A DNA stretch of 32,000 bases, taken from positions 47,710-79,709 of the forward strand of contig JAITBP010000005.1 in assembly GCA_031283585.1 (NCBI GenBank), read 5' to 3'. Below the pieces are notes generated by a model. That model had not been told where the DNA came from and searched no databases. It saw nothing but the letters and a program-made list of their open reading frames with translations. Of this stretch, positions 2,528 to 28,188 are shown piece after piece (the stretch's first letter is position 1; every line of letters begins with the position of its first letter). Position numbers and translations under genes: made by a program. The stretch comes from Puniceicoccales bacterium. Lineage in GTDB: Bacteria > Verrucomicrobiota > Verrucomicrobiia > Opitutales > LL51.

Positions 2528-3355
2528 ATGAGTGACGACCTCACAGTCCATTCTTCCAGTAATACCGATAGGATAAGTATAATAAACGACTATCTCGATG
2601 CGGTAAATCAGGAGACCAAGATAGAAAATCCAACGATTTCGACAGTCGGCGAGCTTAGCATTGGCACAGAATCACTTACGGATGCACCAATGGGTGTGAA
2701 CCTAGCCGGTCTTAGGGTAACAGACGATCCGCCAAGCATCAGCTCCGTGGGTCTGGTCCAGCACCAGGGAAATGAGCACAAAATAGATGTCAACGACGAT
2801 GACCATGATGGTGTCCCGAATTATATTGACGCAAAAGACACTGATAACCAACCAGCCGTAGATAGCGACAAGGATGGCATCCCGGATGACGTCGATGTAA
2901 CCGGAAGTGCATCCGATGTTAAACAATCCCATAGGAATGAAAGCGCTTCTGCAGAACGAGTTAGATCATCGTTAATGTCCGCTCTAATGACATTCTTGCA
3001 GTTCGATTTCAGTCTACTCCTTGGAGGAGCTGATCCCAGCGATAACGAAGCCCGCAAAATCGGTGCATTGGCCCAAACATCGCTTGGAATAACAACGACC
3101 AAAGAAGCCAAGGTCGCCGACATGGACAATTCGCGAAACGTACACCAGGAGATGCGTCAACATAAAATCAGGGCTAATCTAGGCAAGCGTCGAAACCTTG
3201 AAAATGAAGTGCTGACTGACACCAGGCCACTATCCGGCGTAACAAAAAATAAATTCAAGGAATTGGAAAAACCACTCATGGCATCGCAGAAAGATCTTGG
3301 CATTAAAAGTGCAGTAATCCAGGATCAACCTATCAAAAAACCTCCCATGATATAA
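2528..3355 (+). CDS. candidate type III secreted effector with two thrombospondin-type-3-like Ca-binding motifs
   Basis: Starts 1 nt after the chaperone stop. 275 aa with no signal peptide or TM segment and a Ser/Thr/Asn/Ile-rich N-terminus. Carries DDDHDGVPNYID and DSDKDGIPDDVD (DxDxDGxxDxxD pattern, nt 2795..2896). No other family recognised. Confidence 0.45.
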   Translation: MSDDLTVHSSSNTDRISIINDYLDAVNQETKIENPTISTVGELSIGTESLTDAPMGVNLAGLRVTDDPPSISSVGLVQHQGNEHKIDVNDDDHDGVPNYIDAKDTDNQPAVDSDKDGIPDDVDVTGSASDVKQSHRNESASAERVRSSLMSALMTFLQFDFSLLLGGADPSDNEARKIGALAQTSLGITTTKEAKVADMDNSRNVHQEMRQHKIRANLGKRRNLENEVLTDTRPLSGVTKNKFKELEKPLMASQKDLGIKSAVIQDQPIKKPPMI

Positions 3356-5912: not shown

Positions 5913-5989
5913 TGGTCGGGCTGGAGAGATTCGAACTCTCGACCCCTTGCACCCCATGCAAGTGCGCTACCAGACTACGCCACAACCCG
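5913..5989 (-). tRNA. tRNA-Pro (anticodon GGG)
   Basis: Hand-folded 77-nt cloverleaf on the minus strand: CGGGTTG acceptor, anticodon stem CTTGC/GCAAG with loop ATGGGGT, T-arm GAGAG-TTCGAAT-CTCTC, encoded CCA. Confidence 0.9.
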
Positions 5990-10612: not shown

Positions 10613-10641
10613 AGGCATCGACATTCGGTGCCTTGTTTTTT
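10613..10641 (+). terminator. rho-independent terminator downstream of the lipoprotein gene
   Basis: aggcatcg-acatt-cggtgcct forms an 8-bp stem (one G-U pair) and is followed by tgtttttt. Confidence 0.6.
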
Positions 10642-10656
10642 AGATAGTGCTTTAGA

Positions 10657-10740
10657 TGGTGCTCAAGAGGGGACTCGAACCCCTACACCTTGCGGCACAT
10701 GCACCTCAAACATGCGTGTCTACCATTCCACCACCTGAGC
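10657..10740 (-). tRNA. tRNA-Leu (anticodon GAG)
   Basis: 84-nt class II tRNA on the minus strand: acceptor GCTCAGG/CTTGAGC, anticodon stem CATGT/GCATG with loop TTGAGGT, long variable arm, T-arm AGGGG-TTCGAGT-CCCCT, encoded CCA. Confidence 0.88.
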
Positions 10741-10832: not shown

Positions 10833-13550
10833 TTGTTGGAAAGGAGACATCGGCCCATGGACAGAATTGAAAGACCGAATAGCGCAGATGACATAGCTGA
10901 AATAACCGAAATAGCTGAAATAGCTGAAAAATCAGAAAGCAAGGATACTCCGTTGGGTTCCAATCTCAAGTTTGGAGTAAAATGGAGCGATCCCGAAATT
11001 AAAAATTCCAGCCAAAAGTATCGGCAATATCCGCAAAGATCACCCAGGCGTAACCAGGGCAACTTTCGGGCTGATAATCACAGGAAATATCAGCAGCACA
11101 ACAGGTTCAGGCCCGTAAGGCGTCCCTTTGAGCCCATCGTCGACGTCGCCTTTTACCAGAACGATGAACCATTTAAAGCCATGGTCGCGATGATGCAGAC
11201 CTCCTGCAAAACCTATAAGTTGTTCAACGTGGCTCGGTTGATGCTTGAAAAACCAGAAAATTTCGTCGTCACAATAAAAAAGAAACCAAACGCAAACGGA
11301 GAGCTGGAGCCACTGTATCTATCTCTGCCCGATGGTGTTCCTTTCGAAACCGAACAAGATGTTGTTCTCCACATAGCTAGACATCATATGGACAAATTTT
11401 TTGACATAACCGAAATCGATGTGGAGAAGCCAAAAGGTAATTTCACCAGTGTCCACAGATGTGGCATTACCGGGAAGCTGCTGGCTCCACCTAACTACCA
11501 CAAATACAGGGCGATAGTCAAAGAACACTATGAGTCCGAGATAAAATTCATGTCTTTTGGTAAATTTATGTCAAAAATAGAGATCGTCCATGACGAAGCG
11601 GAGATCCAGAAATGGCTTGAGCAAATGTCTAGGCGCCTAATATACAAGCCCAAAATGCCAGAAAATACCGACGATTTGCCAAAAATTGAATCGATATCCG
11701 AGGCTAAGCAGTATCTTTTGGAGAATTTTAAAGACAAAGCGATAAAGGAATCGATAATGCTAAGGATACCAGGAACGGTACTAGTGACCATGCAGCGCTG
11801 CCTGCTCAAAAAATCGATAGACTATGCCTGGCTATGGCAAAAAAGGATCCCGCTCGATACCGCTAACCGGCTCCGTGGCAAATTCAGAAGCTTTCATTTT
11901 TCCGTATATAAAAATGGGAAAAGTGGCATATCCTACGTCTGCGCCGCTCGTAGAAAATTTGTGCCAAGCAACTCCGTTTTTACCAATGAAATCCGCCAAC
12001 TGATAGAATTTTTAGAAAAAAATAATGGTATAAAAATATCCGAACTGGAACAGAAGATTCGCAACCCGACCAGCGGGATTAGTGCCCCCATCGAAGAAAT
12101 TGCAAAAAATCTAAATTGGTTGATCCATGAAGGCTATGTAATTGAATATGAAGATGGTAAGCTGGAAACTTTGCCAAAGATGGAAGAGCCAAGAGAAAAA
12201 TCGGAAAAGTCGGAAAAACCGGAAAAGTCAGAAAAGTCTGTTCAGAATAGCAATCAATTGGCTCTAATTAACCCATCGGACACCACAACTTTATCATTAC
12301 GCGTTGATGAAGAAATAGTTATAGAACCATACAACAGAGAAACTGCAATTGTCGTGGACAAGGAAACCACCATGGTCGCAACCGGCAGTAGTCCATCCAT
12401 GGATGGCAACAACCTCCAGGAACAAGCCAATCATAATAGAAATGTATTTAGGGCAAAACTCATTGAGCGCAAAAGACTTAGCGGACCAAACACAGAAAAA
12501 GTTGGCTATCACCTGGTATTCGAAAATTCCGGCGGCCACAGTTATAAAAGCGGCGATGCCCTGGCTGTGATGCCAAAAAATCCAGAAAAAGATGTGGTGA
12601 GTATATTAAACAGGCTTGGATTAAATTACGATGAAATTGTAAAAATTGGAGAATCCGGACTAACTATCGGTAAAGCACTTACAGAAAAATTATGTCTGAC
12701 ACATCTGCCAAAACGCTTCTGGGAAAGCCTTGCAAAAAAAATCAAAGATGAAAAAGAATTGGAAGAATATTTCGATATAACCAGCGGTGATGGCCAAAAA
12801 TTTGAGACTTTCTTGAAGACCAATGGCCTGGCCGATATACTACAAAAATTCGAAAGTATCACATTGTCAGCCAAGGACTTAGCCGATACATTAGGAAGGA
12901 TGCCGCCCAGACTGTACTCCATATCGTCTGCCTATAGCGCCACACCGGACAAAATCCACCTACTGGTCGCGGCTGTTAAGTATGTGGTAGAGAACAACAA
13001 AGAGCGCCGTGGTGTGGCTTCAACCTATCTGTGCAATGAGCTACAGGTTGGAGAACAGGCCGAGGTGTTTATAGTGAATTCAAAATTTTCCCTACCGGAA
13101 AACTCCGCTGACATTATCATGGTAGGACCCGGCACCGGCCTCGCACCTTTCATGTCATTTCTTCTGGAAAGGGCTACCCGCCGGGCCAAAGGTAACGCCA
13201 TCGGGCGCAATTGGTTGTTTTTCGGAGAACAACATCGAACGGAAAATTTTTATTACAAAGATGAACTGCTTTCTCTGGTCGATCAGGGAGACCTGTGGCG
13301 TCTTGATTTGGCATTCTCCAGAGACCAAGAGCATAAGATCTATGTCCAAGATAAGATGTTAGAAAACGCTAACCTGATACTCGACTGGATCACCAACGGT
13401 GCCTATTTTTACCTATGCGGAGACGCTTCGAAGATGGCAAAAGATGTTGAGGCCACTCTAAAAACAATACTTAGCAAACATACCAACGATCCTGATGGAT
13501 TCGTCAAACAGATGTACAAAGATAAACGCTATCAACGTGATGTCTACTGA
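10833..13550 (+). CDS. fusion protein: unknown ~500-aa N-terminal region + CysJ/diflavin-reductase-type FAD and NADPH binding module (no FMN domain)
   Basis: The C-terminal ~380 aa carry RLYSISS (FAD), GPGTGLAPF (NADPH), YLCGDASKMAKDV and the CysJ-like C-terminus RYQRDVY. No flavodoxin motif is seen upstream. The N-terminal part is unrecognised and contains a basic Q/R-rich stretch. An alternative start is the Met at 10857. Confidence 0.75.
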   Translation: MLERRHRPMDRIERPNSADDIAEITEIAEIAEKSESKDTPLGSNLKFGVKWSDPEIKNSSQKYRQYPQRSPRRNQGNFRADNHRKYQQHNRFRPVRRPFEPIVDVAFYQNDEPFKAMVAMMQTSCKTYKLFNVARLMLEKPENFVVTIKKKPNANGELEPLYLSLPDGVPFETEQDVVLHIARHHMDKFFDITEIDVEKPKGNFTSVHRCGITGKLLAPPNYHKYRAIVKEHYESEIKFMSFGKFMSKIEIVHDEAEIQKWLEQMSRRLIYKPKMPENTDDLPKIESISEAKQYLLENFKDKAIKESIMLRIPGTVLVTMQRCLLKKSIDYAWLWQKRIPLDTANRLRGKFRSFHFSVYKNGKSGISYVCAARRKFVPSNSVFTNEIRQLIEFLEKNNGIKISELEQKIRNPTSGISAPIEEIAKNLNWLIHEGYVIEYEDGKLETLPKMEEPREKSEKSEKPEKSEKSVQNSNQLALINPSDTTTLSLRVDEEIVIEPYNRETAIVVDKETTMVATGSSPSMDGNNLQEQANHNRNVFRAKLIERKRLSGPNTEKVGYHLVFENSGGHSYKSGDALAVMPKNPEKDVVSILNRLGLNYDEIVKIGESGLTIGKALTEKLCLTHLPKRFWESLAKKIKDEKELEEYFDITSGDGQKFETFLKTNGLADILQKFESITLSAKDLADTLGRMPPRLYSISSAYSATPDKIHLLVAAVKYVVENNKERRGVASTYLCNELQVGEQAEVFIVNSKFSLPENSADIIMVGPGTGLAPFMSFLLERATRRAKGNAIGRNWLFFGEQHRTENFYYKDELLSLVDQGDLWRLDLAFSRDQEHKIYVQDKMLENANLILDWITNGAYFYLCGDASKMAKDVEATLKTILSKHTNDPDGFVKQMYKDKRYQRDVY
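10893..10928 (+). repeat. in-frame 9-bp tandem repeat x4 (IAE/ITE)
   Basis: atagctgaa ataaccgaa atagctgaa atagctgaa, encoding IAEITEIAEIAE near the N-terminus of the 905-aa ORF. Confidence 0.9.
12196..12240 (+). repeat. in-frame 9-bp tandem repeat x5 (EKS/EKP linker)
   Basis: gaaaaatcg gaaaagtcg gaaaaaccg gaaaagtca gaaaagtct, encoding EKSEKSEKPEKSEKS. It sits between the unknown region and the reductase module. Confidence 0.9.
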
Positions 13551-13551
13551 C

Positions 13552-14790
13552 CTAGGCTGAAAATTTTTTAGCTATAACAACGGAATTTACACCCATCATT
13601 CCAAAGGAATTGTTCAAAATCACATCCGGGTTATCTAGCTTTATTGCCTTGTTGCACACCAGATTATCGATTCGACAGCTGGGATCTATGTCATCGATAT
13701 TGATCGTCGCATGGACATAATGATCATCAAAAGATGGCAAATTCCCAGCCAGCTCCAAGGCTCCAGCAGCTCCCATGGCATGACCTATAAGACTTTTAGT
13801 ATTATTGAAATACGTATTGCCAACGGTAAACACCTCCCGTAGCGCAACGCACTCAGATATATCTCCCTGGGCTGTCGACGTGGCATGGGTGCTAACTATA
13901 CTCACGTCACCGGGCTGCATATTGGCCATTTTTAAAGCAAGACGAATGCATTCCGCCTGCCTGGTCGAATTCGGCTTGACAGCATCCGTGGCATCGGAGT
14001 TTATCGCATAGCCAACTATCTCGGCATAGATCTTCGCGCCACGTGACAGAGCATCCCTCAGCCGTTCAACAACATATAGGCATCCACCTTCGCTCACCAC
14101 AATCCCGTTTCTTGCCTTGTCAAACGGTCGGCTAACCCGGTTCGGATCCTGGTTATAACCCAGCGCACCTTGACTCTTAAATCCAGCAAATATGCCAAAA
14201 GACCTTATGCTTTCGCTGACACCACCGGCGATGGCAATGTCAACTTCGCCAAGCCGTAACATTTGAAGTGCCTGGATTAACCCTGCATTACCAGCCGCAC
14301 AGGCAGCGCCGATGGTATAATGAGGCCCGGTTATCCCCAGATTTATGGTAATCTCACCGGCCGGATTGTTGGCTATGGTCCGTGGGTTATGATAGTGTCC
14401 CCAGTATTTTACATCATAGTTAAACCGGGACAAATTATATATCTCGTTCTCTGTCTCAACGTTACCGTGCTCTGTTATGCCCACGTAGACGCCAATTCGT
14501 GCTCTGTCCATCGTCGCAAAATCAATACCGCTGTCGCTAATCGCCTCGTTGGCACAATAAACGCCAATGCTGCCGGCGCGGGTACCATTCCTAATGTCCT
14601 TCTTGCTTTGATAGCGAGTGGCTTCAAAATCACATACACCGGCCGGAACAACCCCAATATACCGAATATCGAGCATTTCGATATTTGACTTTCCGGCTAG
14701 CAAGTTACTCCTGAACTCCTTCAGAGAGTTGCCGTTAGGTGCAGTCAATCCCACACCGGTTATGACTATTCTTTCATCAGCTGTGTACAT
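13552..14790 (-). CDS. beta-ketoacyl-ACP synthase I/II family, divergent FabF-like
   Basis: 412 aa with the catalytic Cys context IGAACAAGN, His motifs STHATSTAQGD and IGHAMGAAG, and the C-terminal NSFGMMGVNS. No adjacent ACP or other fab genes. Confidence 0.85.
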   Translation of the reverse strand: MYTADERIVITGVGLTAPNGNSLKEFRSNLLAGKSNIEMLDIRYIGVVPAGVCDFEATRYQSKKDIRNGTRAGSIGVYCANEAISDSGIDFATMDRARIGVYVGITEHGNVETENEIYNLSRFNYDVKYWGHYHNPRTIANNPAGEITINLGITGPHYTIGAACAAGNAGLIQALQMLRLGEVDIAIAGGVSESIRSFGIFAGFKSQGALGYNQDPNRVSRPFDKARNGIVVSEGGCLYVVERLRDALSRGAKIYAEIVGYAINSDATDAVKPNSTRQAECIRLALKMANMQPGDVSIVSTHATSTAQGDISECVALREVFTVGNTYFNNTKSLIGHAMGAAGALELAGNLPSFDDHYVHATINIDDIDPSCRIDNLVCNKAIKLDNPDVILNNSFGMMGVNSVVIAKKFSA

Positions 14791-14927: not shown

Positions 14928-16559
14928 TTGTGGATGAAGCGGCTAAATAAAGTTATACTCCATTACAGCAATGACATGGTAACGATTTGCGATGTCTCCT
15001 TTAAAGAAGAAAATTACCTTATAAATGTGCTAGGAACAATGGAATTAACCAGAGACAAAACCATTGATACCATCCTAGAGTCCCTACCGCAGAAAATAAG
15101 AAAAAGCGTCGGCCAGATCATACTGGCGGATTCGATCCTAAAATATGTGCCGCTTCGAACATACAATACGAGAGAAGACAGGCTTAAAAAAGCAATCGAG
15201 TTCGAATTTGCCAACATTTTTAAAGAAAAAGCAGACCAATTGGCCTACTATATAGATCCGACTCCAACCAATGACAAAAATATCGCAAACTGTTTTGTAG
15301 CAGAACCCTGTGTGTTAGGCTCTCTGCACCTTGCTTTGAAAAAAGCCCAAATGTCTCCAAAAATACTGCTGCCGGACCCGGTGCTGCGCATCCGCGGCTT
15401 CAATAGGTACAACAGGCCAATACTGTTCATTCATTTAGTAAAAAACGCTCTATTCCTGCATCTAGGCGAGGAAAACAAACATCAAACCAAGGTGATTCCA
15501 CTTGGGCTGGATTCCCTGGCGAAAAAAATCAAACGGGACCATCAGGTCCACCTGTCAACGGATGAACTGGAATCGGTATTATTTTCAAGGCCAATATCGA
15601 TAGCATCTGATAAAAATGCGCCGATTATAGAGCAAATTACCGACGAGATATCTACATATTTAATGGAAGAATTGAGAAATTTTATATCAGAATTTTTTGA
15701 CAATAAAAGAACAATCTATTCAGGGCCAATTGTTCTTAGCGGACTGACCGACGATTTCGTTTGCATGCCAAGGTTGGCCGATGTAATACCCCAGGAAAAT
15801 ATCAAAGATATAAACAATGTTATAAAAATTCACCTAAAGCTAAACAATGATTCAGAACAAGTTATCGCCGGGATCATTCCAGCCCTTATCGGTGCCATTA
15901 ACCTATCCAATGAAAAAGACAATGTCTTAAATTTATCAAAAAATATCAATGAATCAGAATATGCCGATGGTATTCTACCGTCCTATCTCAAAAATTTGAT
16001 CCTGATCATGGTTCTATTGACCTCGGCAAACCTATTTGCCTACTCGGCCATTCTGAGAAAAAATATAGTTCTGCGCCATATAAATTCCAATCTTATAAGC
16101 GATAAAGCCGATCTATCGAAGCTTGCAAGTAGCATTGCGGCTGCCAAAAAAACCGTCGAAGCCAGGCAAAAAATTACAAATACAGCAAATTTTGCCAAAA
16201 ATCACCAGGATCTGTTGATAGAATTTTTCCGAAATCTACAGGCTTCGGTGGCAGAGATTAATGACCTCTGGCTGGATGAGTTAGCGATTGATCCATCTGA
16301 ACAGAAAAATGCTGGTGAAAAACTTCCTACCCAGCCTTCGATAAAAATAATCGGCAGAATGTTTGTAAAAAACATGTCAAATTTACCAGAATTCACATCA
16401 CTGACCAATGAACGATTTAACAAATTATTCGAAAAAATGAAAAAACTACCTGGTGTAACCAATGTGTCTAAAATAAAAATACAGCCTCCGGAAAACAACA
16501 CCATACTATTTCGGTGCGAGCTATTTTTAAAAAACAATTCCCAGATTTTCAGCCCATGA
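14928..16559 (+). CDS. PilM-like actin-fold domain fused to a PilN-like transmembrane/coiled-coil segment
   Basis: 543 aa. The N-terminal ~340 aa have PilM-like features (KKAIEFEFANIF resembles the PilM EAVRWEAEQYIPF block). There is a single TM at about aa 354-376 (LKNLILIMVLLTSANLFAYSAIL) preceded by VLNLS (compare the PilN INLLP motif), then a ~165-aa periplasmic tail. Confidence 0.5.
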   Translation: MWMKRLNKVILHYSNDMVTICDVSFKEENYLINVLGTMELTRDKTIDTILESLPQKIRKSVGQIILADSILKYVPLRTYNTREDRLKKAIEFEFANIFKEKADQLAYYIDPTPTNDKNIANCFVAEPCVLGSLHLALKKAQMSPKILLPDPVLRIRGFNRYNRPILFIHLVKNALFLHLGEENKHQTKVIPLGLDSLAKKIKRDHQVHLSTDELESVLFSRPISIASDKNAPIIEQITDEISTYLMEELRNFISEFFDNKRTIYSGPIVLSGLTDDFVCMPRLADVIPQENIKDINNVIKIHLKLNNDSEQVIAGIIPALIGAINLSNEKDNVLNLSKNINESEYADGILPSYLKNLILIMVLLTSANLFAYSAILRKNIVLRHINSNLISDKADLSKLASSIAAAKKTVEARQKITNTANFAKNHQDLLIEFFRNLQASVAEINDLWLDELAIDPSEQKNAGEKLPTQPSIKIIGRMFVKNMSNLPEFTSLTNERFNKLFEKMKKLPGVTNVSKIKIQPPENNTILFRCELFLKNNSQIFSP

Positions 16560-17479
16560 ATTTTACACTTACAAAAAAACGTGCTACCTATCTGTCCGCA
16601 ATAATTTTTTTGATTATTCTATTTCTGGCATTGCCAACGCTGCTGCTTGCCACGATAAAAAAAATGACAGAAAACAAAAATTTAGACGAAGCCAACAGAA
16701 AACTCCGGCTAGAAGTCTCTCATCTCCAATCAACTAAGCCGCAACCAACCGAAGCCACGCTGACTTCCCTGAGACGCAGGGCCAGCGCCTATGAGCTTAG
16801 ATCAAACATCTACCTGGAGGAATATAGAAAATATTCACTGGCGATAACGGACAGTTCCGCACCAAAAAACGAAGTCGATCTATATTTTTCACTGATGTCA
16901 CTGGTTAAGTCACTGCATACAAAAGCAATCAAGGCCAGAATCAGTGTTCCGAAAGACTACTACTTTGCCTTTGAACCCTATGTAAAAAAAGATCTGATAC
17001 CGCGGCCAGAAGAAATTCATCTGCTTTATAGCCAAAGCCTAGCCATACTGAAACTATTATCCGTGCTGTTCAAATCCAATGAAAATGAAATGGCACTGAT
17101 TTCCGTGGAAAGAGAATCTATTTCCTTGGACAAGAACAAACTAGACGCACCGGATACATTTTCATCGGCAAAATTCAATAGCTTCCGAACCAAAGGAGCG
17201 GAATCCTCTCTGTTCACAATAACATTCGCCGGTTACACCAGATGTTTTCGCAATTTTCTGAACGGCATAGCCCAAAAATCCCTGCCTGTACTTTTCAAAG
17301 AAATAAAAATTTCGCCACTGGATTCGAAGACGAAACCAGATAATAAGCCCCAGGCTAAAAAGGAAGAAAAGACGATAGTTGTTGAATCGAGGAAATCAAA
17401 AATCAAAGTGACGGTGGAGTGGTTATTCATGAACAATAATGAAGAACTCCTTCGGTCAGAACAAGTAATAAACGAATGA
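16556..17479 (+). CDS. membrane-anchored coiled-coil protein, PilO-like / Amuc_1100-like architecture
   Basis: The track ORF begins at 16514, but the ATG at 16556 forms an ATGA overlap with the upstream stop and gives MNFTLTKKRATYLSAIIFLIILFLALPTLLLATI (a TM anchor). This is followed by a coiled-coil region and a C-terminal domain (FTITFAGYTRCFRNFLNGIAQ...KIKVTVEWLF). Confidence 0.4.
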   Translation: MNFTLTKKRATYLSAIIFLIILFLALPTLLLATIKKMTENKNLDEANRKLRLEVSHLQSTKPQPTEATLTSLRRRASAYELRSNIYLEEYRKYSLAITDSSAPKNEVDLYFSLMSLVKSLHTKAIKARISVPKDYYFAFEPYVKKDLIPRPEEIHLLYSQSLAILKLLSVLFKSNENEMALISVERESISLDKNKLDAPDTFSSAKFNSFRTKGAESSLFTITFAGYTRCFRNFLNGIAQKSLPVLFKEIKISPLDSKTKPDNKPQAKKEEKTIVVESRKSKIKVTVEWLFMNNNEELLRSEQVINE

Positions 17480-18354
17480 TGTCTCTAAATATGTTAGGAT
17501 TAGCAAGCTGTGTCCTATTTTTTCTAGGCACAGCCTATGAGTTTTTTTGCATGAAAACCGCCAAAAATGAACCACTAAAACCGCCGGATCAACCACTTAA
17601 TCAAAAAATAGACCTGGCTTATCAGGACGATCTGCTCAGGTACGATTTCAATGAGTTTTCCTGGCCAGATCCAACCCCATCGGACCGGGGCGAATTCTGG
17701 CTATTTGATCTATTTACACCACCGCAAATTTCTGTCAGCAATGGGGTATTTTCGGCCTCATTGCCACAATTACACAGCGAAAATCTCGATTTAACTGTCA
17801 CATCAATTTCAAGACAACAATATAAGATACAATTTTTCGGTTATTTTCAAAAGCCAGCCGGCTTCGGCGATAACAATAAATTTACATTAATACTATACGA
17901 TATAACAAAAGACCAAAGCTTCCGATGCGAAGTTGGGGATGAACTGACTGATAAAAACATTTCCATAATCGGCTTCAAGGAAAAATTCTCCTCCGCTGAT
18001 CCGCTATTGAAAAATAAACCGATGGTGACAATTTACGACAAAGACCTTGCTAAAAACATTGAGCTATCCAGTCATACAAAATTCTACGATGATAGATACA
18101 CAATAGTAATAAAGTCTGGCACTTCTGCTAAGTCGTACACCATTAACAAGATAAATGACTCCATTAGCCTGGATGGCATCAGCTATTCCCTGACCGAAGT
18201 CAACATGGATGCCGGATATATAAAATTAACCCAGACCGGTGGCGATGGCCATGAATCAGCCAAGATAATCAGGGTTATCGGCTTAGCTGACAATACATTA
18301 CAGAATGAACCCAGACAAAAACAACCGATCATCGATGGACCAGACAGGAAGTAA
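17476..18354 (+). CDS. N-terminally anchored protein of unknown function (third gene of the pilM-like operon)
   Basis: ATGA overlap with the upstream stop. N-terminal hydrophobic segment LGLASCVLFFLGTAYEFF, then a beta-rich-looking region (FWLFDLFTPPQISV...). No family recognised. Confidence 0.4.
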   Translation: MMSLNMLGLASCVLFFLGTAYEFFCMKTAKNEPLKPPDQPLNQKIDLAYQDDLLRYDFNEFSWPDPTPSDRGEFWLFDLFTPPQISVSNGVFSASLPQLHSENLDLTVTSISRQQYKIQFFGYFQKPAGFGDNNKFTLILYDITKDQSFRCEVGDELTDKNISIIGFKEKFSSADPLLKNKPMVTIYDKDLAKNIELSSHTKFYDDRYTIVIKSGTSAKSYTINKINDSISLDGISYSLTEVNMDAGYIKLTQTGGDGHESAKIIRVIGLADNTLQNEPRQKQPIIDGPDRK

Positions 18355-24865: not shown

Positions 24866-24942
24866 GGGGGATTAGCTCAGTTGGTTAGAGCGTTTGCATG
24901 ACACGCAAGAGGTCACTGGTTCGAGCCCAGTATCTCCCACCA
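24866..24942 (+). tRNA. tRNA-Val (anticodon GAC)
   Basis: 77-nt cloverleaf: GGGGGAT/ATCTCCC acceptor, D-arm GCTC-AGTTGGTTA-GAGC, anticodon loop ATGACAC, T-arm ACTGG-TTCGAGC-CCAGT, encoded CCA. Confidence 0.9.
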
Positions 24943-26897: not shown

Positions 26898-28055
26898 ATG
26901 ACCTCAAATGATAGTGAATCTCCCATAATAAGATTCGTTAATCATGTTTTTGAGCATGCCATCGCAAAAAAAGCGTCGGACATTCACTTTGAAACATTCA
27001 CCGATGCGGTGGTGATAAGGCTACGCGTGGACGGCGTACTGGAAGAACTCCCTTCCCCTGATAGACATCTGGGCAACGCGATAATTTCAAGAATAAAAAC
27101 CATTGCCGGGCTGGATCTTGCGGAAAGAAGACTGCCTCAGGATGGCCATGTAGAAATAAAATATCTAAACCGAGTGGTGGACTTCCGGGTATCTACATTA
27201 CCAACCCAATATGGCGAAAGTGTCGTGCTGCGTGTACTGGACAAAGATTCGTGGCATTTTGATTTAAACCTAATGGGCATACCGGAGAATGTGTTAGCAG
27301 AAATTCGTAAAAATTTACACACGGGCTCGGGAATCATATTGACCACGGGACCCACAGGTAGCGGTAAAACAACCACACTTTACAGCGCATTGCATGAAAT
27401 AAACAACGAAGAAATAAAGATCCTCACGGCCGAAGACCCGGTGGAATACGAAATCGATGGAATTGTGCAAGTTAACATACGAGACGATATAGGTCTGTCC
27501 TTTGAAAAAACCCTCAGATCATTCCTGAGGCACGATCCGGACAAAATACTAATAGGCGAATTAAGGGACTCCATTACGGCCAAAATAGCCATACAAGCAG
27601 CACTCACAGGCCATCTGGTACTCGGAACACTGCACACAAATGATGCTCCAGCCGCCATAACAAGACTCGTCGACATGGGCATAGAACCATTTCTCATCGC
27701 CGACACAATCAGAGGAATTCTGGCCCAAAGACTACTGCGAAAAATATGTGAAAATTGTAAAGAAAAAGCACCAAGAACCAGAATTTTTGAAGAAAAATAT
27801 CCAGAACTAGCTGACTCAGAATATTATATAGGAAAAGGCTGTCCCCAGTGCAACAATACAGGTTACTCCGGCCGGTTTGGCATCTATGAATGGCTTGACA
27901 TAAATGCAGAAATCAGACAGTCAATAAGAAACCTGGTCCCGCTGGAAAATTTGCAAAAAATAGCCCTAGATCAAGGCCTTGTGCCATTGAAAACCCAGGC
28001 AATCGAAGCAGTAAAAAATGGCCAAACCACCATCCATGAACTGGATAAGGTGTAA
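26898..28055 (+). CDS. PilB/GspE-family secretion ATPase, short form without N-terminal N1 domain
   Basis: Walker A GPTGSGKTT, Asp box, Walker B ILIGELRD, His box GHLVLGTLHTNDA, and the tetracysteine motif CENCKE...CPQCNNTGYSGR, which is typical of PilB/GspE rather than PilT. 385 aa. Confidence 0.85.
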   Translation: MTSNDSESPIIRFVNHVFEHAIAKKASDIHFETFTDAVVIRLRVDGVLEELPSPDRHLGNAIISRIKTIAGLDLAERRLPQDGHVEIKYLNRVVDFRVSTLPTQYGESVVLRVLDKDSWHFDLNLMGIPENVLAEIRKNLHTGSGIILTTGPTGSGKTTTLYSALHEINNEEIKILTAEDPVEYEIDGIVQVNIRDDIGLSFEKTLRSFLRHDPDKILIGELRDSITAKIAIQAALTGHLVLGTLHTNDAPAAITRLVDMGIEPFLIADTIRGILAQRLLRKICENCKEKAPRTRIFEEKYPELADSEYYIGKGCPQCNNTGYSGRFGIYEWLDINAEIRQSIRNLVPLENLQKIALDQGLVPLKTQAIEAVKNGQTTIHELDKV

Positions 28056-28111: not shown

Positions 28112-28188
28112 TGGCGTCCCGTATGGGATTCGAACCCATGTTGCCGGAATGAAAATCCGGTGTCCTTGACCGACTAGACGAACGGGAC
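28112..28188 (-). tRNA. tRNA-Glu (anticodon UUC)
   Basis: 77-nt cloverleaf on the minus strand: GTCCCGT/ACGGGAC acceptor, anticodon stem CCGGA/TCCGG with loop TTTTCAT, T-arm ATGGG-TTCGAAT-CCCAT, encoded CCA. Confidence 0.88.

Follow-up and report, generated by a model that had tools for sequence, protein, structure and literature searches.

Evidence for a lineage-restricted fusion of an Opitutia-wide protein family to an FMN-less CysJ-type reductase module

Closest described systems and the fusion locus

In P450 BM3, nitric oxide synthase (NOS) and pyruvate:NADP+ oxidoreductase (PNO), a module of the type found in CysJ and cytochrome P450 reductase (CPR), which uses reduced nicotinamide adenine dinucleotide phosphate (NADPH), is tethered to its partner on one polypeptide. 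All of these proteins keep a flavin mononucleotide (FMN) shuttle and a client with an obvious cofactor, either heme or iron-sulfur (Fe-S) clusters with thiamine pyrophosphate. Here we analyze a protein that shares this tethering but, unlike P450 BM3, NOS and PNO, lacks an FMN domain and has no recognizable cofactor site in the partner. It is encoded in a stretch of DNA of 32,000 nucleotides from a Puniceicoccales bacterium (contig JAITBP010000005.1; hereafter, the window) and consists of an N-terminal module (N-module, or module 1; residues ~1-520) linked to a C-terminal flavin adenine dinucleotide (FAD)/NADPH module (C-module, or module 2; residues ~530-905).

The C-module resembles the SiR-FP43 form of Escherichia coli CysJ (PDB 1ddg) in having an FAD domain with the connecting sub-domain, an NADPH domain, the RxYS, GxGxxP, SR(D) and CGD motifs, and a terminal aromatic residue. 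Unlike E. coli CysJ, it has neither an FMN (flavodoxin-like) domain nor the N-terminal octamerization segment, and there is no CysI in the window. SiR-FP43 is a laboratory fragment, whereas the FMN-less form described here is the natural state. The C-module also resembles standalone Opitutia proteins named 'sulfite reductase subunit alpha' (Ereboglobus luteus P0175, Opitutaceae P0239), which are its orthologs, with 40-46% identity over the full length and invariant motifs. These differ in being single-module proteins of 360-390 aa in unrelated gene contexts, and no characterization of them was found in the literature. The N-module resembles winged-helix proteins (the archaeal AspA/PadR-like winged helix-turn-helix (wHTH), and tandem winged-helix proteins of the 'kite' and ESCRT-II type) in its last ~70 aa, at both the profile and the structure level. 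This match covers less than 20% of the N-module; no neighbor was found for the 283 residues before it, and the tandem winged-helix matches are weak (E 0.1-1, root-mean-square deviation (RMSD) >9 Å).

With a probability of about 0.9, the comparisons presented below indicate that the gene is a genuine evolutionary fusion, restricted to one lineage, of two genes that are conserved separately in Opitutia. The initial annotation had described a CysJ-type module lacking the FMN domain, attached to an unassignable N-terminal region, and had suggested an undescribed redox enzyme or redox-sensing protein. The description was confirmed, and the interpretation was supported in part.

Architecture of the fusion gene

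The uninterrupted open reading frame (ORF) on the + strand, 10833..13550, encodes 905 aa from a TTG codon. The real start is probably ATG 10857, giving an 897-aa product, because GGAG at 10843-10846 lies 10 nt 5' of this codon, and the equivalent Met is the start in every homolog in the alignment. The features of the gene, all on the + strand, are as follows.

10857..13550, +: fusion gene, 897 aa from the probable ATG (905 aa in the mechanical ORF from TTG 10833)
10889..10929, +: 9-bp tandem repeat encoding AEITEIAEIAE near the N-terminus (Tandem Repeats Finder, TRF)
10944..10985, +: short N-terminal motif, family-wide, consensus D-L-x-x-L-x4-F-G-x-x-W (conservation analysis)
10986..11132, +: basic Q/R-rich segment QKYRQYPQRSPRR..., probably disordered (low complexity; outside the structure models)
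11133..11981, +: predicted globular alpha/beta core of the Opitutia family (AlphaFold2 (AF2), Foldseek, conservation)
11985..12170, +: predicted winged-helix domain at the C-terminal end of the N-module, LNWLIHEGYVIEYEDGKL (AspA wHTH profile, Foldseek)
12171..12419, +: low-complexity N-family tail, now the inter-module linker (alignments with split gene pairs)
12195..12238, +: 9-bp tandem repeat within the N-family tail, encoding (EKS/EKP)5, 4.9 copies (TRF)
12315..12380, +: clade-specific tail motif IVIEPYNRETAIVVDKETTMVA (clade consensus VI.L...ETAIEK..DGTL.V..ET)
about 12381-12430 (near residues 517-530), +: evolutionary junction with the reductase gene (alignments with split pairs)
12432..13028, +: FAD-binding domain with the connecting sub-domain (FAD_binding_1), including RLYSISS (Pfam, 1ddg alignment, orthologs)
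13119..13451, +: NADPH-binding domain (NAD_binding_1), including GPGTGLAPF, FSRDQ and LCGDA (Pfam, 1ddg alignment, orthologs)
13530..13550, +: C-terminal RYQRDVY and stop codon (alignment to SiR-FP43; invariant in 12 Opitutia reductases)

The short N-terminal motif reads DTPLGSNLKFGVKW in the window and is partly degenerate. M523 aligns with the start position of the ancestral reductase. No Shine-Dalgarno sequence was found ahead of it, and an internal start for the reductase half at this codon was rejected; the promoter-like and terminator-like sites checked in this connection were not more common than in shuffled sequence. At the repeat at 10889-10929, the window and P0001, a 99%-identical protein from an independent assembly, are exactly one unit apart, with P0001 being 3 aa shorter; this difference is a polymorphism in repeat length that preserves the reading frame, within the disordered N-terminus.

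An ordinary reductase without an FMN domain

Across the whole protein, Pfam profiles detected FAD_binding_1 (PF00667; residues 534-732, profile positions 4-222 of 222, E=8e-31) and NAD_binding_1 (PF00175; residues 763-873, E=2e-12) only, with no flavodoxin domain at E<=1; the polypeptide has neither an FMN nor an Fe-S domain. The last 365 residues (~541-905) match 1ddg end to end (E=7.7e-63). RLYSISS, GPGTGLAPF, FSRDQ, LCGDA and the terminal RYQRDVY all fall within this alignment, and the terminal Tyr pairs with the final residue of SiR-FP43. The hallmarks of an NADPH domain are present, namely GxGxxP, the S-R site for the 2'-phosphate, CGD and the C-terminal aromatic residue, and the FAD and NADPH motifs are invariant in the alignment of 12 Opitutia orthologs. 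Judged by its sequence, the reductase half is an ordinary one that works like the FAD/NADPH portion of CysJ and CPR, to which it is homologous. The earlier claim that the last ~380 aa form a complete CysJ-type FAD/NADPH module without an FMN domain is therefore upheld by Pfam, the cysJ profiles and the 1ddg alignment.

The cysJ models of NCBIfam (TIGR01931 / PRK10953) are matched only over their C-terminal two thirds, beginning at position ~219 of 597, with scores below the cutoffs (327.6 vs 668 and 268.5 vs 838). Pfam scans of every ORF of >=150 aa revealed no cysI-like (NIR_SIR) gene in the 32-kb window, in agreement with the initial annotation, and no NIR_SIR protein was found in the syntenic loci L001, L088 and L089. 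By these comparisons, the C-module is not CysJ proper, given its below-cutoff score and the lack of CysI in the window, nor is it a member of the diflavin reductases, having no FMN domain. A flavodoxin gene was likewise not detected in the window by Pfam scans.

The nearest relatives of the C-module are not full-length CysJ but standalone FAD_binding_1 + NAD_binding_1 proteins of 360-390 aa, which cover 95-99% of the query at the identity level given above. All the named ones among them come from Opitutia (E. luteus, Opitutus, Opitutaceae and many Puniceicoccales metagenome-assembled genomes). The C-module is an ortholog of this FMN-less reductase, which is common in Opitutia. Because the closest relatives are standalone FMN-less enzymes, the FMN-less state is the normal condition of the reductase in this class. 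Accounts of Opitutae signature proteins or FMN-less CysJ in the literature described neither this reductase nor the N-terminal family discussed below. The supposition that the FMN domain had been 'replaced' was not borne out, because standalone genes for the FMN-less reductase are present across Opitutia; the N-terminal part corresponds to a separate class-wide gene that came to be adjacent to the reductase gene and was then fused with it in one small lineage. FMN-less CysJ-type reductases are thus a natural and widespread standalone form in Opitutia, which raises the question of their electron acceptor. In another Opitutaceae genome (L086), the standalone reductase gene lies directly upstream of fabG-acpP-fabF.

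Counts of fusions obtained with the word-indexed protein search of the C-module would be underestimates: this search missed P0001-P0003 despite their 72-99% identity.

The N-module belongs to a class-wide Opitutia family

A search with residues 1-520 yielded 182 matches, nearly all of them standalone proteins of ~500-700 aa that contain no Pfam domain and are labeled 'hypothetical protein' in Opitutales and Puniceicoccales; E-values for the closest standalone members reach 1e-104. Profile searches among 1.84 billion representatives (50% identity) identified 1764 members of this family (hereafter, N-family) at E<=1e-3, of which 953 have E<=1e-30. At least 586 sites were confirmed in species-representative genomes (586 of the 600 pattern-matched ones). 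Among the matches listed (n=80), all loci are from Verrucomicrobiota, and the more precisely named ones are from Opitutia. No Pfam or NCBIfam model matched the N-module in the whole-protein search. Moreover, when 60 family members were compared with Pfam one by one at E<=1, no consistent match emerged, and the long members (730-860 aa) contain no extra Pfam domains, only longer disordered regions. In agreement with the initial annotation, which could not assign this region, the N-module belongs, by these searches, to an independent, class-wide Opitutia family outside every described family.

Members of the N-family, typically about 550 aa when standalone, share a plan of five parts: a short conserved peptide at the N-terminus (D-L..L....FG..W), a basic segment that varies in length (median net charge +5), a conserved core of ~370 aa, a winged helix that ends this core, and an acidic, disordered tail (median net charge -13, median length 82 aa). 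Near-invariant residues of the core (905-aa numbering) include T127, F131, K140, P200, G202, C210, N221, H223, W261, P340 and R348, along with several further Arg residues, and form the signature T, F, K, P-G-F, C, P-N-x-H, W, P-L-D-T-A-N-x-x-R, L-x3-G-Y-V. The window protein keeps 34 of the 37 near-invariant positions, and the fused proteins keep 34-36. One loop of the core, PxGxF...RCGxTG...PPNYHxY, is particularly rich in invariant residues, and the conserved residues look like a binding or active site.

The AF2 model of residues 90-460 (371 aa), built from an alignment of 91 sequences, is confident (predicted local distance difference test score (pLDDT) 93.8, predicted template modeling score (pTM) 0.84). 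In Foldseek searches of PDB and BFVD with this ~371-aa model, nothing was found at E<=1e-3, and all credible matches were winged-helix structures aligned to the last ~70 residues (~64-85 aligned columns, best probabilities 0.8-1.0, RMSD ~3-5 Å). In the model, this region consists of helices 296-307, 313-321 and 331-344 and strands 347-350 and 354-357. The only match of the N-family profile to PDB sequences was the AspA wHTH (E=0.006), over the LNWLIHEGYV region. These profile and model comparisons support a winged helix as the last folded part of module 1. A second AF2 model, of the 283 core residues without the winged helix, has a pLDDT of 91.3; against PDB, its best Foldseek match has E=1.4 and a probability <=0.03, that is, there is no domain-level neighbor. 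As modeled, this alpha/beta core (~290 aa) has no detectable fold relatives.

The possibility, raised in the initial annotation, that the N-module is a degenerate flavodoxin, making the protein a conventional diflavin reductase, was considered and excluded: no flavodoxin match was found in Pfam at E<=1, and no flavodoxin fold was matched by Foldseek on the confident models, the best hit of the core being that at E=1.4. Three features pointed out in the initial annotation can now be placed: the Q/R-rich basic stretch is part of a basic disordered segment found throughout the N-family; the winged-helix-like end was recovered by the AspA wHTH profile match and by Foldseek; and the (EKS)n linker does derive from a 9-bp tandem repeat.

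The value of the locus lies in this partner of the reductase. Its family was present in all the Opitutia genomes checked, with at least 586 confirmed sites and, at 50% identity, about 1,700 clusters, and its confidently modeled structure has no PDB neighbor other than for the winged helix.

Origin of the fusion

All fetched loci were searched for a reductase module downstream of the N-family gene. The fused form is present in the window, L001 (P0002), P0003 and P0001, and an adjacent same-strand pair of genes, with a gap of 1-270 bp, was found in L003/L004, L005, L006, L008, L009 and L010. In a neighbor-joining tree, the fused and adjacent forms fall within one clade, the sole exception inside it being L007. 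The remaining 73 loci are outside this clade, and a reductase gene within ~6 kb was found in none of them, nor in L007.

Four independent assemblies carry the fusion (the window, Logan SRR14710909, JGI 3300042596 and GCA_031268545.1), with 56-99% identity. These belong to one small lineage, and a scan of metagenome contigs for further fused copies found none. The fused loci share synteny, with genes for MurJ, a PpiD-like protein, a 374-385-aa protein matching no family, the fusion itself, a convergent beta-ketoacyl synthase (KAS) and a pilus-like cluster. The window protein and P0002 share 60% identity in the N-half and 73% in the C-half, and both halves of the fused proteins are under purifying selection.

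The tandem repeat in the linker, together with the existence of the two halves as separate genes in relatives, could suggest an artefact, that is, a frameshift, a sequencing error or an assembly join near the EKS repeat, as the initial annotation had allowed. The fusion is, however, present in all four assemblies across the range of identities given above; P0002 and P0003 are fused although, in the alignment, they have no EKS repeat; and the repeat lies ~170 nt upstream of the evolutionary junction. Given the independent assemblies, the repeat-free fusions and the conservation of both halves, an artefact is excluded as far as sequence data allow. Taken together with the diflavin reductase with a degenerate flavodoxin, for which neither a Pfam match nor a fold match to flavodoxin was found, this explanation is scarcely credible.

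The distribution indicates how the fusion arose. The two genes first became a same-strand pair in one Puniceicoccales clade; the stop codon between them was then lost in the sub-lineage that includes the window, which joined the halves via the natural disordered tail of module 1, from which the present low-complexity linker of ~80 aa derives.

Members of the adjacent-pair clade share only ~40-46% identity with the window protein, and the outer flanks vary among their loci. A gene for a YhaM-like OB+HD 3'-5' exoribonuclease lies directly upstream of the N-family gene in 5 of the 6 adjacent-type loci (6913-7899 in L003, and the equivalents in L006, L008, L009 and L010; NCBIfam PRK13480, E=9e-39, below the cutoff), and the block of YhaM-like, N-family and reductase genes is kept in these five. 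In L005, the upstream position is occupied by a KsgA-like gene instead. These neighbors are a weak hint of an RNA-related context. Among the 70 loci for which neighborhoods were clustered, recurrent ThiL-like, TsaE and CPBP protease genes are convergent and uninformative, and only the block in this sister clade is informative. The clade-specific tail motif is confined to P0001-P0016 among the 219 N-family proteins with a locatable winged-helix anchor motif; these 16 proteins are the closest relatives and take in every fused or adjacent case examined.

Possible function of the pairing

Gene order suggests that the conserved pairing stems from a genuine functional partnership in the fused and adjacent clade, a reading to which we assign a probability of about 0.55: the pair is kept amid changing surroundings, the tail motif occurs in the same clade, and fusion followed. 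The favored reading does not take the fusion to be a new self-contained enzyme. Module 2 would transfer hydride from NADPH to FAD, as its complete set of conserved motifs implies. Because the polypeptide carries neither an FMN nor an Fe-S domain, electrons would then have to leave FAD for either a separate one-electron carrier of the flavodoxin type or something held by module 1; retention of the connecting sub-domain makes flavodoxin the natural choice of carrier. Tethered to module 1, the reductase could supply reducing equivalents to it or be recruited to its site of action. Module 1 would most likely be a nucleic-acid-associated protein.

Several observations weigh against such a partnership. 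In 74 of the 81 non-fused loci, there is no reductase gene within ~6 kb, so that a class-wide obligatory partnership of the two genes is unlikely, and, in the tree, their adjacency appears to have arisen only once. Elsewhere, the standalone reductase has unrelated contexts: after gpsA, before fabG-acpP-fabF, near ndk, and after a SpoU methylase gene. The flexible linker fits two halves that act independently. Among the conserved residues of the N-module, no known flavin, Fe-S or heme motif is recognizable, the conserved Cys and His residues amounting to one invariant Cys, one Cys conserved at ~90% and two His. Finally, the putative binding of nucleic acids rests on the winged helix, the charge and the weak YhaM/KsgA neighborhood.

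Alternatively, the fusion could be incidental and tolerated: functionally unrelated housekeeping genes, neighbors by chance in a gene-dense, compact genome, would have been joined through a disordered tail by the loss of one stop codon, with each half acting as its standalone ancestor did. Such an origin would fit the single origin of adjacency, the lack of linkage in the 74 other loci, the long low-complexity linker, the fact that standalone N-family proteins already end in an acidic disordered tail (median 82 aa), and the other, unrelated neighbors of the reductase. It does not readily account for the maintenance of the pair, while flanking genes change, across a clade ~40-46% identical to the window, for the clade-specific tail motif in the same clade, or for the persistence of the fused state through 56-65% protein divergence with both halves conserved. 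We regard an incidental fusion, the main rival, as rather unlikely, and return to the partnership as the preferred explanation.

In a bolder version of the partnership, the N-module would be a new-fold, class-wide and possibly essential enzyme or nucleic-acid-processing factor, fed directly by the FAD of a ferredoxin-NADP+ reductase (FNR)-type module with no FMN or Fe-S intermediary, and the tail motif would be a docking element. This version is a long shot; if true, it would add a new type of client to those of CysJ/CPR-type reductases and give about 1,700 uncharacterized protein clusters a redox-dependent function.

The new redox enzyme suggested in the initial annotation would be self-contained, with a catalytic or metal site in the N-module (perhaps C210, N221, H223, H232 and C370) reduced directly by FAD, bypassing an FMN carrier. 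The loop rich in invariant residues and several invariant Arg/Lys do resemble an active site, the N-module is joined to an electron-input module, and its fold has no neighbor. However, a check for cofactor-binding residues revealed no known motif, an Fe-S cluster would need more ligands than the two Cys and two His that are conserved, and the two genes are kept apart in most Opitutia. To our knowledge, every characterized FAD_binding_1-type reductase passes electrons to an FMN domain, which also counts against this proposal. We consider it improbable.

The other suggestion, a redox-sensing regulator whose winged helix would bind DNA under control of the NADPH/NADP+ or redox state, as reported by the NADPH/FAD module, is compatible with the combination of a winged helix and a tethered nucleotide-binding module. 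Yet the N-family is normally standalone, at ~550 aa, with a large conserved core outside the winged helix, unlike small wHTH regulators; neighborhood clustering showed no conserved divergent target gene; and the catalytic residues of the reductase, needless for a pure sensor, are all retained. Such a regulator is very improbable, and both it and the self-contained enzyme lack specific support.

The functional partnership thus remains our preferred reading. The conserved operon of two genes, later a fusion, is the only functional clue found for the N-family, a lead that is still unproven; the fusion is a useful, testable lead rather than a demonstrated new system.

Genomic neighborhood of the fusion gene

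The fusion gene has housekeeping neighbors, among them the genes for MgtE, a CesT-like protein, an aminotransferase, a methyltransferase, MurJ, a PpiD-like protein, an unannotated protein of 374 aa, tRNA-Leu, a convergent fabF-like KAS, the pilus-like cluster, DprA, SpoU, FtsK and RseP. The tRNA genes are as follows.

5913-5989: tRNA-Pro (GGG)
10657-10740, - strand: tRNA-Leu (GAG)
24866-24942: tRNA-Val (GAC)
28112-28188: tRNA-Glu (TTC)

The tRNA-Leu gene lies between a terminator-like hairpin of the upstream gene (10613-10633) and the fusion gene; from this placement, the fusion gene probably has its own promoter and is monocistronic. At the other end, the stop codon of the fusion ends at 13550, and that of the convergent KAS gene occupies 13552-13554. 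With one base between the convergent genes, as is also the case in L001, L088 and L089, there is no room for a terminator.

The 374-aa ORF at 9464-10588 matches no Pfam or other family, and its N-terminus resembles a lipoprotein signal (...LLSGC). Counterparts of 385 aa in L001 and 378 aa in L089 occupy the same position in these syntenic loci. Three consecutive ORFs, 14928-16559, 16514-17479 and 17476-18354, have no Pfam match in the window. The orthologs of the second in L001, L088 and L089 carry a precomputed Pfam assignment to PF28028 (Amuc_1100), and we presume that the three ORFs may correspond to the pilus-like cluster Amuc_1098-1102 of Akkermansia. Positions 26898-28055 encode a T2SSE/PilB-like ATPase.

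Near the start of the window, the ORF at 2050-2526 encodes a protein of the CesT family (type III secretion chaperone-like; E=7e-15), with no other secretion-system genes in the window beside it. It is followed, 2 bp on, by a 275-aa ORF (2528-3355) that has no Pfam match, and the two could be a chaperone/effector-like pair.

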